Below are positions 6,073 to 36,418 of a stretch of DNA of 45,268 nt, piece after piece. The notes under the pieces were generated by a model. That model was not told the DNA's origin. It saw only the letters and a list, made by a program, of their open reading frames with translations, and searched no databases. Within the stretch, counting starts at the first letter, position 1; each line of letters opens with the position of its first letter. The DNA comes from Candidatus Moraniibacteriota bacterium. GTDB taxonomy: Bacteria; Patescibacteriota; Minisyncoccia; Moranbacterales; UBA1568. The stretch lies in NCBI GenBank assembly GCA_028688415.1, contig JAQTYF010000001.1, forward strand, positions 530,627 through 575,894, read 5' to 3'. Made by a program: the position numbers and the translations under genes.

Positions 6073-6243
6073 CTTTATTACCTCTTTCTTGTGTAAAAAA
6101 ACTCCAATGTTTTCCGAAAAGAAAACTCTTACAGTATACAGAATATGCTTCTTTTTGCAAAAACTTGATTTTTTTGTGCTTTCTGATAGACTCTCTATGC
6201 AGGTTGACCTGCTTTTTCTTTGTTCCACAAAAATCGAGAATAT

Positions 6244-6278
6244 GGCCTCATCGTCTATCGGTTAGGACACCAGGTTTT
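6244..6278 (+). pseudogene. Duplicated 5' half of tRNA-Glu (acceptor 5' strand, D arm, 5' anticodon stem)
   Basis: 6241-6278 is identical to 6571-6608. After CCAGGTTTT it diverges into two small GC hairpins (CACCCAAAGGGTG, CCACCCTCTGGGTGG). No 3' half is present. Confidence 0.85.
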
Positions 6279-6573: not shown

Positions 6574-6645
6574 GGCCTCATCGTCTATCGGTTAGGACAC
6601 CAGGTTTTCATCCTGGGAAGAGGGGTTCGACTCCCCTTGAGGCTA
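6574..6645 (+). tRNA. tRNA-Glu (anticodon UUC)
   Basis: Hand-folded cloverleaf: acceptor GGCCTCA/TGAGGCT, anticodon arm CCAGG-TTTTCAT-CCTGG, T arm AGGGG-TTCGACT-CCCCT. Confidence 0.9.
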
Positions 6646-6666
6646 CACATGTATCAATAAAAACGC

Positions 6667-14833: not shown

Positions 14834-14861
14834 CACAATTACATCAAAAAATGAATAAAGG

Positions 14862-14909
14862 GGTGGCCATCGTTCAATGGCAGGTCCGCCAGTTGGCGGA
14901 TTGTGGTAC
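14862..14909 (+). pseudogene. Partial 5' pseudo-copy of tRNA-His with a palindromic hairpin insert
   Basis: 14847-14884 matches 14918-14955 apart from one position in the 5' flank (a14851 versus g14922); this covers the 5' flank, acceptor 5' strand and D arm. TCCGCCAGTTGGCGGA then replaces ACAATGGT, TTGTGGTAC follows (matching 14964-14972), and no 3' half is present. Confidence 0.8.
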
Positions 14910-14932
14910 AAAATTTAAAAAGTGAATAAAGG

Positions 14933-15004
14933 GGTGGCCATCGTTCAATGGCAGGACAATGGTTTGTGGTACCATGAATCAGGGTTCGATTCCCTGTGGC
15001 CACC
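14933..15004 (+). tRNA. tRNA-His (anticodon GUG) with encoded G-1
   Basis: G-1 pairs with C73. Acceptor GTGGCCA/TGGCCAC, anticodon arm ATGGT-TTGTGGT-ACCAT, T arm CAGGG-TTCGATT-CCCTG. Confidence 0.85.
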
Positions 15005-15079
15005 CCTTTGAACACTTTTTAACAAATTCTCGGATCAGGGTTCCTTGTGTTCCATAGACCTTTTTTCTTTTCTTATCCA

Positions 15080-17253: not shown

Positions 17254-17302
17254 AAGAAAATAATTACGGATATAGATGAAGTATATCATATATCTGCAAA
17301 CG

Positions 17303-17325
17303 AAAAAACCACTCGAAGTGGTTTT
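17303..17325 (-). terminator. Intrinsic terminator ending the tRNA-Arg transcription unit
   Basis: On the minus strand, AACCACT-TCG-AGTGGTT followed by UUUUUU. Confidence 0.6.
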
Positions 17326-17330
17326 AAACT

Positions 17331-17754
17331 GTTCATTTGTGCGCTCGGCCCGCTTCGACCGATATCTCATCGAGGCGAGAGGGGATCTCCTTCGACTAAA
17401 CTTTTGAGGAGAATGGAATCGGTCACAGATAACTTATTCGCCGACGCTCATAAATTTCCGCGACCCCAGCTCGTGGTTTCGTGTACTCACGAAACATCAC
17501 TCCGCTTTTCTCTCCCCTACGCAAGCCAAGCAGTTGGCTTGCTCCGAGCGACTATTCACTTTGTTCATTTGTGCGCTCGGAGGGGATCTCCTTCGACTAA
17601 ACTTTTGTCGACACAAAAGTTTGTCTAGGCACCGTCTCACGATTTTGTCTGCTGACAAAATATCGTTCTGACGTTCGATCCCCTACGCAAGCCAAGCAGT
17701 TGGCTTGCTCCGAGCGACTATTCACTTTGTTCATTTGTGCGCTCGGAGGGGATC
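17331..17754 (-). repeat. Array of repeated and inverted copies of the tRNA-Arg 3' end plus flank
   Basis: Perfect 75-bp direct repeat at 17514-17588 and 17680-17754; the latter overlaps the last 17 nt of the tRNA. A third partial copy at 17331-17406 is split by a 31-nt hairpin (17349-17379). Confidence 0.85.
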
Positions 17755-17811
17755 GAACCCCCGACCCTCTGGTTCGAAGCCAGATGCTCTAATCCACTGA
17801 GCTACGAGCGC
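17738..17811 (-). tRNA. tRNA-Arg (anticodon UCG)
   Basis: Minus strand GCGCTCG TA GCTC..GAGC A TCTGG-CTTCGAA-CCAGA GGGTC GGGGG-TTCGATC-CCCTC CGAGCGC A. Confidence 0.9.
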
Positions 17812-17856
17812 ATATAATTCATACTTTAATTGTCCCGAGAGACTCCTTCTTCCATC

Positions 17857-17909
17857 CTCTCATCCACTGATCCGTCTTCGCCAGCTGGCGGATGGAACGG
17901 AACAAGCGC
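17857..17909 (-). pseudogene. Partial 5' pseudo-copy of tRNA-Arg interrupted by a palindromic hairpin
   Basis: Minus strand tatatGCGCT + 34-nt insert (contains CGCCAGCTGGCG) + TCAGTGGATGAGAG, compared with the real gene tatatGCGCTCGTAGCTCAGTGGATTAGAG. Confidence 0.65.
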
Positions 17910-17983
17910 ATATAGGAGAGAATACAAGAGTAACCGTACCGCAAAAAGGATACAAAGTCAATCAAATAAAAAATACTCTCTTT

Positions 17984-18508
17984 TTATTTGTTGTAATGTA
18001 CAATAAATTCACTGGGGTTTTCCCACCATTCTGGACGAGTACGCCTCTCACCTTCCTTCCAATATCCTGGTAAAACCTCCTTCTTCCATGGACCTGTATA
18101 AATAGCAAAATGGAGATGAGCCTTCCAGAAACCATTTTCTGGAGTAAAGCTTTCTCCAATGAAACCAAGCGGCTCACCAATTTCTACCTTGTCATCGATG
18201 CGTTTGAAACACGCTCCCAAATGAGCATACACAGAATAAAATACTCTCCTCGTTCTTGGTTGTTTATGTCGAATGATGAGAATATTTCCCCAATTTCCTT
18301 TTTCTGCTATTCCTGGATGGAGTGCAGCGTATACTACTTTGCCTCTCCCACAAGCACGCACATCAGTACCTGCCGGAGCTTCACAGTCTTCTCCGAGATG
18401 TATCCCCCACAGCACTCCATCATAGACAGAACGTTTTCCAAACGGCACACCGTTGACAGCATACTGATCTATAGGAAATACCAAAGATGGAGTAACGAGA
18501 TGTGCCAT
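17984..18508 (-). CDS. M23 family metallopeptidase (LytM-like)
   Basis: HLGEDCEAPAGTDV, YSVYAHL and AHLHFAIY motifs. Start is 18508 or 18529. Confidence 0.8.
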   Translation of the reverse strand: MAHLVTPSLVFPIDQYAVNGVPFGKRSVYDGVLWGIHLGEDCEAPAGTDVRACGRGKVVYAALHPGIAEKGNWGNILIIRHKQPRTRRVFYSVYAHLGACFKRIDDKVEIGEPLGFIGESFTPENGFWKAHLHFAIYTGPWKKEVLPGYWKEGERRTRPEWWENPSEFIVHYNK

Positions 18509-30965: not shown

Positions 30966-31116
30966 AAAAAAACAAGAAAACCCATCTTGCGACGAGTTTC
31001 AATGTCCCTCCACGGCGGATAAACCTGCCCGAAATGCTACGCCCGCCAGAAACGCTGTATCTACTGCGGGCTGGCATAACGTTGCAGATGGGCTTACAGC
31101 ACTTTCCTGAAGAAAA
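30966..31116 (-). repeat. Element E1 (5'-truncated copy with modules A then B on the plus strand) ending in a terminator
   Basis: Shares terminator, GACATTGAAAC and CTGTAAG blocks with E2 and E3. A is at 31007-31024 and B at 31025-31093. Terminator stem is 30981-30996. Confidence 0.8.
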
Positions 31117-31690: not shown

Positions 31691-31880
31691 AAAAACAAGA
31701 AAACCCATCATAAGATGGGTTTCAATGTCCTGCCCGCAATGCTACGCCCGCCAGAAACGCTGTATCTACTGCGGGCTGGCATAACGTTGCAGGCGGGCCC
31801 TCCACGGCGGATAAACTTACAGTACTACTTGAAGAAATTCCCCTCCATAGGTGGACTCTATCTTGGGGTAGAGTGCGTCC
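31691..31880 (-). repeat. Element E2 (full copy, modules B then A on the plus strand, plus an extra A-like 15-mer)
   Basis: B at 31730-31798, A at 31799-31816, extra CCTCCATAGGTGGAC at 31842-31856. Terminator CCCATC-ATAA-GATGGG at 31704-31719. Confidence 0.8.
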
Positions 31881-32077
31881 AAATTATTTACAGAATTATT
31901 CTGTTCCTTAAGTGTGGAAATACCTAATTCTTAGACTTTAAACTATCCAAAACTTCCCTAAATAAACGAATTTACATACTATTGGAAATGGTGTCCTTTG
32001 ATGTTTTTTTACTATCTCCATGCAGAAACTCTACAATTTTATTATACACCCTCCCAATCAAAGCCACGAATCCATAT

Positions 32078-34459: not shown

Positions 34460-34654
34460 TATTGACTATAAGCGTATGGCGTATTCTTTCTTATGACGTC
34501 TATCTCTACGCTGACCAGAAAAAATGACCTTCAGAATCTCCTTTCTACCCCACTGACGAATAATATTTTGGTAGCATTTTGATTCCGTAACATTAGCTAT
34601 CTTATTATACACCCGAAATACTTCTAAACTAGTATATATCAAATTTTCTTCCAG

Positions 34655-34741
34655 AAAACAAGAAAACCCGTCTTGCGACGAGTTTCAATGTCTTACAGTA
34701 CTACCCGAAGAAATTCCTTTATCTTGGGGTAGAATGCGTCC
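34655..34741 (-). repeat. Element E3 (module-free copy), downstream of 16S, ending in a terminator
   Basis: Minus strand GGACGCATTCTACCCC..GGGTAGTACTGTAAGACATTGAAAC + CTCGTC-GCAA-GACGGG + UUUUCUUGUUUU. Confidence 0.75.
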
Positions 34742-34919
34742 AAATTATAAACAATTCATAATCTTTTGCGGTTAGTCCTTTTCGTAAGGTCTCTAGTTTT
34801 ATTATGTTTCATTGCTAGAAATGCTCTCGCCTAAGCGTCGGCACTTAATTATACAATGAACGACCATAATGGTTGTGAACCTGATTTTGAGTCAGAATTC
34901 GTACACCTTTATCTCCCTA

Positions 34920-36418
<1,499 letters not shown>

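Follow-up and report, generated by a model that had tools for sequence, protein, structure and literature searches.

The repeat array downstream of tRNA-Arg(TCG)

We analyzed a stretch of 45,268 nucleotides (nt) from Candidatus Moraniibacteriota bacterium (contig JAQTYF010000001.1, positions 530,627 to 575,894; hereafter the window, meaning the whole stretch), in which a tRNA-Arg(TCG) gene was followed by a trailer of about 430 bp that contained copies of the gene's own 3' end. The gene itself (17738-17811, minus strand; found by ARAGORN and scoring 71 bits with Rfam) was intact and was located between the genes for an M23 peptidase (stop at 17984) and a SIMPL-domain protein (start at 17289 or 17253). 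The trailer consisted mainly of two copies, E1 and E2, of a small structured unit that we also identified beside tRNA genes at many other loci (designated L007, L008 and so on).

The repeated core of the array was the last 18 nt of the tRNA (nt 56-73). The proximal copy R1 (17728-17754, minus strand, GATCCCCTCCGAGCGCACAAATGAACA) was a 27-nt version of this core that included nt 56-73 and 10 nt of the trailer, and a second 27-nt copy, R2 (17562-17588, minus strand), formed the left arm of E1. Both copies belonged to a perfect direct repeat of 76 bp, the blocks of which (17513-17588 and 17679-17754) were 100% identical; an earlier note on this DNA had put the length at 75 bp. The distal copy R3 (17330-17348 and 17380-17387, minus strand) was split by a hairpin-forming insert of about 31 nt (17349-17379) that lay between tRNA nt 65 and 66, and the same split was present at L007 with an insert of 29 nt. 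In terms of repeat families D2 and D3, this third copy occupied 17330-17348 and 17379-17406, and its interruption by about 31 nt was as the earlier note had described. The 18-mer core occurred twice, compared to 0.01 occurrences expected from shuffles, and a 22-mer hairpin of the units also occurred twice (0.00 expected).

Unit E1 (17589-17727; covariance-model match at 17612-17718, 101.9 bits) started with an interior (17589-17672) made of hairpin hp1, helix Pa and hairpin hp2. The hp1 hairpin was the palindrome AAACTTTTGTCGACACAAAAGTTT (17599-17622), one of several further palindromes that had already been noticed between the repeats. The interior was followed by an inverted copy of the tRNA 3' end, designated S, which could pair with R2. 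It was composed of the T part GTTCGATCCCCT (17673-17684), the linker AC, the hairpin HP (GCAAGCCAAGCAGTTGGCTTGC, 17687-17708), the linker T and the acceptor part CCGAGCGA (17710-17717), after which came a spacer (17718-17727). Unit E2 (17407-17561; covariance-model match at 17446-17552, 99.4 bits) had a diverged left arm (AGGAGAATGGAATC, 17407-17420) and an interior that began with GGTCACAG at 17421. Its right part contained a degenerate T part, HP at 17521-17542, the acceptor part at 17544-17551 and the spacer at 17552-17561. Thus, the inverted, hairpin-split copy of the tRNA end that the earlier note had reported was real and had a second, partly degenerate counterpart around 17521-17542. 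Only E1 and E2 were matched by the covariance model in the window. Additionally, the 19-nt stub TCCTTCGACTAAACTTTTG (17388-17406, repeat family D3) was equal to the first 19 nt of an E1-type interior and is a leftover of an older E1-type unit; similar stubs were found at L007.

Read along the tRNA strand, the order was tRNA, 27-nt core, 10-nt spacer, antisense of nt 73-66, hairpin, antisense of nt 65-54, interior, and core again. This pattern was seen twice, for E1 and for E2, and was followed by the 19-nt stub, the distal hairpin-split core and a putative terminator. The latter, an intrinsic-type hairpin with a T run at 17325->17305 (minus strand), was the first such site downstream of tRNA-Arg and the only one on the tRNA strand across the array, within which no promoter-like site was found either. 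Since the array had no internal terminator, it would be co-transcribed with tRNA-Arg, as had been proposed before.

A family of units at tRNA 3' ends

Comparison of the loci revealed a common anatomy. The units were approximately 130-230 bp long and started with a left arm that was antisense to tRNA nt 56-73. Next came the interior, with helix Pa, hairpin hp2 and usually hp1, and then the right arm S, a sense copy of tRNA nt ~54-73 that carried a 25-nt insert (AC, a 9-bp hairpin and T). The last part was the spacer, which at other loci was a bidirectional terminator and at one locus 1.3 kb of cargo genes. The left flank of the hairpin copied the T loop and the 3' strand of the T stem of the neighboring tRNA, while the right flank copied its acceptor 3' strand and discriminator; therefore, the 25-nt insert was located exactly between nt 65 and 66. 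Only the AC dinucleotide was conserved 5' of the hairpin.

The arms followed the identity of the adjoining tRNA. In a split-point search, 14.5 of 18 positions of the hairpin flanks agreed with the cognate tRNA end versus 11.3 with non-cognate ends; the match was perfect for 13 of 83 units, and no control exceeded 16. Moreover, of the units compared with their tRNA, about half had an antisense copy of its last 17 nt located 75-160 nt upstream, which ended in the T loop and continued into a conserved start such as GGTCACAR or GGCYTCGRC. Two loci were informative with respect to the ownership of the arms. At L012, the S arm was equal to the left arm, yet both differed from the tRNA at four positions, and at L034 the left arm was of the tRNA-Leu(TAA) type, though the unit adjoined tRNA-Leu(TAG). 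These mismatches indicated that the arms belonged to the element. The spacer, or proximal trailer, motif ATGAACRAAGTGAA was common to E2-type units in four genomes and was absent from the bare trailer of L130.

The exact 22-nt hairpin GCAAGCCAAGCAGTTGGCTTGC was present in three species-representative genomes, of which two had it at syntenic tRNA-Arg(TCG) loci and the third, from another Patescibacterium, beside tRNA-Ala, as well as in at least 120 metagenome contigs. It had no match among viral contigs, and the units had none in phage or plasmid collections. Among the matches listed there were 134 hairpin copies, 92 of which were within 80 nt of the 3' end of a convergently oriented tRNA gene; others were in arrays 190-410 nt away or beside transfer-messenger RNA (tmRNA) genes. 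Altogether, about 100 of the 134 copies were either 5-65 nt from a tRNA or tmRNA 3' end or part of such arrays. Counted by amino acid, the tRNAs adjoining the units had at least 17 identities. From 38 units we built a covariance model, which produced 157 matches in 0.65 Mb and 34 more in 0.18 Mb, and about 30 of these had variant hairpins with stems that differed by compensatory changes. Roughly one quarter to one third of the other tRNA genes on the examined contigs carried a unit, which is only a rough estimate because the strict regular expression for split copies had a sensitivity of about 25%.

Contigs with units were mostly of low to medium G+C content and Patescibacteria-like. L106 was betaproteobacterial, its aspartate kinase being 86-88% identical to those of Betaproteobacteria metagenome-assembled genomes. 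L023 and L115 were taken as betaproteobacterial as well because they had near-identical units at a G+C content of 59-60%. All three had the identical hairpin beside tRNA-Ser.

The relatives of the window differed in the number of units. At L130 (GCA_037441965.1), the order M23 peptidase, tRNA-Arg(TCG), SIMPL was the same as in the window and the tRNA was identical, with no units, no 5' pseudo-copy of the tRNA (described below) and only 158 nt between tRNA-Arg and the SIMPL gene. L131-L134 also had no units. L008 and L029 each had one E2-type unit, orthologous to E2, and L007 had one E1-type unit, homologous to E1 with compensatory changes, plus stubs. Since relatives had zero or one unit, the array in the window was a lineage-specific gain. 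Mobility was also suggested by tandem arrays at L071, L083, L049 and L063, by a nested insertion at L010 and by two units at L011, beside tRNA-Glu, that flanked the 1.3-kb cargo, which consisted of a peptidase S51 gene and one other open reading frame (ORF). The units themselves can be mis-called as ORFs.

The surroundings of this locus were not uniform either. In L007, L008, L131, L133 and L134, the tRNA-Arg segment with its units and pseudo-copy (17737-17984 was compared) was inverted relative to the M23 gene in comparison to the window and L130, and the far-side neighbor was the SIMPL gene in one arrangement and a membrane protein gene in the other. L007 was a 485-kb contig (CAZTBI010000001.1) labelled "uncultured Bdellovibrionales". 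It was syntenic with the window through LexA, M23 peptidase, tRNA-Arg and a tRNA-His/Arg/Lys cluster, and had the appearance of a Moranbacteria-type Patescibacterium, so that the label is probably erroneous.

Further copies were present in the same genome. Unitigs at the same sequencing depth indicated diverged paralogues of the modules elsewhere. In run X2, a paralogue of E1 (17600-17720 was compared) differed at 15 positions, and the 10 listed differences were all transitions, including the compensatory pairs 17640/17665 and 17646/17657. It was joined to a tRNA-like segment that had diverged and to another copy of the 5' pseudo-copy; thus, the whole module was apparently duplicated at another locus.

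The 5' pseudo-copy of tRNA-Arg (17854-17914, minus strand, repeat families D4 and D7), which the earlier note had correctly recognized, contained tRNA nt 1-8 and ~13-29 with 5 nt of upstream flank and was interrupted by the hairpin TCCGTTCCATCCGCCAGCTGGCGAAGACGGA (17871-17901). It was shared with L008 and L029 and was absent at L130 and L007. It is probably a member of a second, 5'-side kind of small insertion. In the same window, tRNA-His(GTG) (14846-15006) had an upstream direct pseudo-copy (14846-14884, 97% identical) that ran into TCCGCCAGTTGGCGGA, a hairpin of the same type as that in the tRNA-Arg pseudo-copy, followed by TTGTGGTAC from the anticodon loop. Partial 5' tRNA copies with other inserts (TCCGCCTTCGCTC...) were found at L008, L053 and L077, which points to a second family of mini-insertions that target tRNA genes on the 5' side.

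Other features were found beside RNA genes. Upstream of tRNA-Glu(TTC) (6574-6646) by 330 bp, a perfect copy of its first 35 nt with 3 nt of upstream flank was located at 6241-6278, and the interval contained an ORF for a small GIY-YIG nuclease (Pfam PF01541, E = 1.7e-14) that was interrupted by an in-frame stop. Judging from these features, it resembles a homing-endonuclease-type insertion at the anticodon loop that is in decay. Repeat families of 26-71 nt, 61-96% identical, were found at 30968-31093, 31691-31798, 34654-34753 and 31816-31892, on the low-coordinate side of an isolated 16S rRNA gene (34921-36417, minus strand). At L022, two group I intron matches of 62 bits each (245-478 and 714-1004) flanked tRNA-Met, one of them placed like cargo, between this tRNA and a hairpin unit. 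Finally, the junction motif ...CTTTNNNCCAAGTTAGAACC... was found after a truncated tRNA or tmRNA acceptor end at L017, L052, L124, L108, L044, L039 and L089/L094. At L039, a junction of this type started a 5-kb island that ended in a frame-shifted large serine recombinase beside tRNA-Glu; islands of this kind form a class of their own that occupies the same genes.

Base pairing, proposed mechanism and alternatives

The helices of the units were strongly supported by covariation. According to RNAalifold and pair counting, all 19 modelled pairs, including the nine of the hairpin, showed double (compensatory) changes. The proportion of paired cells was 96.3%, a value inflated by the use of a covariance-model alignment that was itself fitted to the structure; it was reached by none of 500 shuffles, and slid controls gave 24-48%. 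Among 2180 cells there were only 32 G·T-type pairs (1.5%) and 24 A·C-type pairs, symmetric between the strands. An independent wobble count gave 21 versus 31, and wobble asymmetry measured in three ways showed no strand bias. A constraint that is Watson-Crick-only and strand-neutral is expected for DNA hairpins and is unusual in functional RNA. Thus, the rarity and strand symmetry of G·T pairs favored a constraint at the DNA level, and judging from the alignment, hairpins formed in single-stranded DNA or as a cruciform would fit the pairing better than RNA. When folded as single-stranded DNA, E1 was predicted to form a three-way junction (z = -8.9) composed of the acceptor helix, the hairpin HP and the T-part helix enclosing the interior.

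Our preferred explanation, to which we lean with modest confidence, is that the ~430-bp trailer is a tandem array of two non-autonomous, attC-like integrative mini-cassettes (E1 and E2) with older stubs, which home to the 3' ends of tRNA and tmRNA genes. It builds on the architecture of the units, their association with tRNA genes, arms that covary with tRNA identity, helices that covary with no G·T bias, the presence or absence of units from one relative to another and the finding that no recombinase was linked to them, and it would involve a single-stranded intermediate, a recombinase and a route of retargeting. Namely, pairing of the two arms within a single DNA strand would restore the targeted part of the tRNA as a duplex, from which the hairpin would branch off sideways, and the interior would form the variable tip. 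The folded strand would then have the topology of an integron attC site or of the folded attP of the CTX phage. A trans-acting recombinase recognizing this structure may exchange strands with the resident tRNA 3' end, so that the newest units would enter next to the tRNA and shift the older ones outward while the tRNA gene is kept intact. The match of the arms to each new tRNA could be kept by hairpin-templated correction or gene conversion.

Several points weigh against this explanation. No recombinase, transposase or reverse transcriptase was linked to the units or identified in trans, and neither an excised circle nor an empty allele was seen in this population, for which unitigs were searched. 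Fitting the arms to at least 17 tRNA identities would require some means of retargeting, for which only hypothetical mechanisms can be proposed. The pairing percentage is inflated, as noted above, and compensatory changes in palindromes can also arise by template switching with no selection on structure. Additionally, at many loci a bidirectional terminator separated the unit from the tRNA, which also fits a convergently transcribed RNA gene.

The main alternative is that the units are tRNA-linked structured RNAs, transcribed by read-through from the tRNA promoter or convergently to a shared terminator, and that their mobility is secondary. In one form of this idea, the tRNA-sense strand could fold into a tRNA-like junction, in which an acceptor-like stem is joined by the hairpin in the position of the D arm and by a T-stem helix around the interior; RNase P and RNase Z could excise this junction. 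In another, suggested by folding predictions, the trailer could sequester the T arm and the acceptor strand of the tRNA and thereby modulate its maturation. The earlier note had raised this pairing, and we reproduced it in silico: the predicted minimum-energy fold of the co-transcript paired the 3' half of the tRNA with the trailer (-215.9 kcal/mol, z = -8.3). The uninterrupted path from the tRNA to 17325, the bidirectional terminators, the strong covariation of the helices and the second hairpin at the T-arm position in R3 of the window and L007 are all consistent with an RNA role. However, G·U-type pairs made up just 1.5% of cells and were no more frequent than A·C-type pairs on either strand, the array contained no promoter-like site, and no Rfam family matched. 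Moreover, close relatives live without units, and truncated stubs and nested copies were found. We regard an RNA function as the primary role of the units as unlikely.

It was also considered that the array grew locally with no mobility at all. In this scenario, template switching at a terminator hairpin would mirror the tRNA 3' end, tandem duplication would stack the products, and the resemblance between loci would reflect a shared mutational mechanism. Indeed, the S arm was often continuous with a perfect palindrome that included the trailer and the terminator, it usually tracked the proximal tRNA end, and the complete identity of the 76-bp blocks suggested recent conversion or duplication. 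On the other hand, unrelated tRNAs, different phyla and several tRNAs located on a single contig had the identical 22-nt hairpin and homologous interiors in common. In addition, the insert was constantly at 65|66, and the junction of the left arm with the interior was constantly in the T loop. Hence, we consider local growth distinctly improbable.

Slightly less credible still is that the repeats are ordinary integration scars, namely attL/attR leftovers of integrase-bearing islands or prophages that have since been deleted. Direct repeats of a tRNA 3' end are the classic signature of such events, and other islands did occupy tRNA or tmRNA genes in related loci, for example the large serine recombinase island at L039 and an AlpA-bearing island at L115. 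However, a uniform architecture of 100-200 bp with conserved, covarying structure recurred more than 150 times at many tRNAs, and random deletion would not yield such uniform units. There was no linked integrase: no integrase or recombinase gene was found at the window locus, L007, L008 or L130, relatives with zero, one or two units had no integrase-bearing island there, and matches in viral, phage or plasmid collections numbered zero. The inverted hairpin-split copy, intrinsic to the unit family, is foreign to known att scars. Thus, the idea of att remnants put forward in the earlier note was right as far as att-like duplications of the tRNA 3' end were concerned, and their number varied among relatives, but they are unlikely to be relics of lost islands; each repeat bounded a complete 130-230-bp member of a widespread, structured and gene-less family.

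Finally, a mis-assembly can practically be dismissed: although the source genome was metagenome-assembled and Logan contigs of related strains ended inside or beside the tRNA, Logan unitigs of four landfill metagenome runs tiled the region across every junction, the 76-nt repeat unitig had about twice the flanking depth (28.5 versus 11, 247.6 versus 117 and 15.8 versus about 9), and the same architecture was found in independent genomes.

Comparison with known elements and significance

With respect to known systems, the units shared the basic feature of tRNA-associated islands, namely direct repeats of a tRNA 3' segment (R1, R2 and R3; the left arm in about half of the units tested). They were not of kilobase size with cargo, being ~130-230 bp with a single 1.3-kb cargo case. 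Tandem accretion at one tRNA, the use of tmRNA as an additional target and a presumed mobilization in trans are also typical of non-autonomous tRNA-integrating elements, such as cis-mobilizable elements (CIMEs) and satellites, and of casposon and tycheposon arrays, all bounded by direct repeats of a tRNA 3' end. In contrast to these elements, the units were one to two orders of magnitude smaller, had a conserved folded core with an internal inverted, hairpin-split copy of the target, and formed one family for at least 17 tRNA identities. No autonomous parent element was found. The serine recombinase and AlpA islands, found at loci with a distant or missing tRNA, were separate elements with their own junction motif (..CCAAGTTAGAACC). 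A casposon-like target-site duplication was rejected because the left arm travels with the element (L012, L034) and the trailer motif is element-borne. A tRNA-primed retroelement, suggested by analogy to a primer-binding site, was discarded since there was no reverse transcriptase and no CCA at the junctions and the hairpin was located inside the copy.

A close structural analogy was provided by integrons. In single-stranded DNA, the imperfect inverted arms of an integron attC site fold so that an extrahelical feature lies between the two boxes, and their structure is conserved over their sequence. The units likewise had imperfect inverted arms, and the bulged hairpin that these form also had a variable tip, but the analogy extends to topology only. 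They also had the same linear order (core, cargo, inverse core, variable tip, core) and were stacked at one fixed site with or without cargo. However, their arms were tRNA-specific copies of 18-20 bp of the target rather than sites of the RYYYAAC/GTTRRRY type with the 7-bp GTTRRRY core of attC, and their extrahelical feature was a whole 9-bp hairpin. The T loop of the units, GTTCGAW, departed from the integron core at the fourth position, and the junction was at nt 55|56, not at G|TT. Neither an IntI gene nor attI adjoined the array at this locus or near the 134 units, the hosts were mainly Patescibacteria, and the cargo at L011 was transcribed away from the tRNA.

In integration of the CTX-phage type, the single-stranded attP folds into a mimic of the dif site of the chromosome, and the host XerCD recombinase is used. 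As in this phage, two inverted segments of the unit would pair to recreate a duplex target, and the element has no recombinase of its own. The units differed in that they target tRNA 3' ends rather than dif, have many targets and are only 130-230 nt long.

Other classes of small repeats fitted less well. The ends of the units (GGTCACAR... and the spacer) were not inverted repeats and the duplication was 17-27 bp of tRNA sequence, which does not correspond to miniature inverted-repeat transposable elements (MITEs). Like repetitive extragenic palindromic (REP) sequences and bacterial interspersed mosaic elements (BIMEs), which are moved by RAYT or IS200/IS605-type HUH transposases, the units were short, gene-less and hairpin-based, had Watson-Crick-only covariation and presumably depend on an enzyme encoded elsewhere. 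In contrast to them, the units had no GTAG/CGTC tetranucleotide 5' of the palindrome, had target-derived arms and were confined to tRNA 3' ends. Among 727 ORFs clustered all-against-all within ±3.5 kb of the 134 units, no protein family was enriched and only housekeeping genes were found.

A further comparison concerned split-guide RNAs, such as the bridge RNA of IS110, the tigRNA of TIGR-Tas and H/ACA pockets, in which two target-matching segments flank a hairpin as they do in the units (PMC11208160, PMC12045711). However, the unit segments had the same sense and abutted in the target, G·U pairs were scarce and there was no adjacent partner gene. More generally, the units did not qualify as guides of CRISPR, tandem interspaced guide RNA (TIGR) or bridge-RNA systems, since no effector gene adjoined them and both flanks of the hairpin were of the same sense. 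TIGR arrays have 9-nt spacers and Tas genes, and TIGR-Tas was rejected as a candidate because its dual 9-nt spacers are directed to opposite strands and its Tas genes are adjacent. With Rfam 15, searched in the window and 20 loci with both gathering and E-value thresholds, only tRNA, tmRNA and group I intron models were matched, never the units, and a literature search that included the literal hairpin sequence found no description of them. Thus, since the units did not pass the defining tests of integrase islands, integrons, MITEs, REPs or guide-RNA systems, we classed them among the tRNA-targeting integrative elements.

A bolder and rather doubtful extension of our explanation is that the units represent a new class of target-templated cassettes with no protein genes. 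In such a class, the folded strand would replicate its tRNA target, the hairpin at 65|66 would mark the exchange point, and a conserved trans-acting enzyme would read the structure alone. Arms for any tRNA or tmRNA could then be fitted to the scaffold, which could have spread across phyla, from Patescibacteria to Betaproteobacteria. If this is true, it would be a naturally programmable, DNA-guided system of site-specific recombination.

With the units, a considerable amount of structured and conserved Patescibacteria DNA is missing from Rfam and from the searchable literature, and the units break assemblies at tRNA genes. In organisms with minimal genomes, they would, if they act as RNA, point to a layer of tRNA 3'-end biology not known before. 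If they move as we propose, then target specificity would reside in the arms of the element and not in a protein, which would bear on the origin of integrons and of Xer-exploiting elements as well as on programmable DNA insertion.

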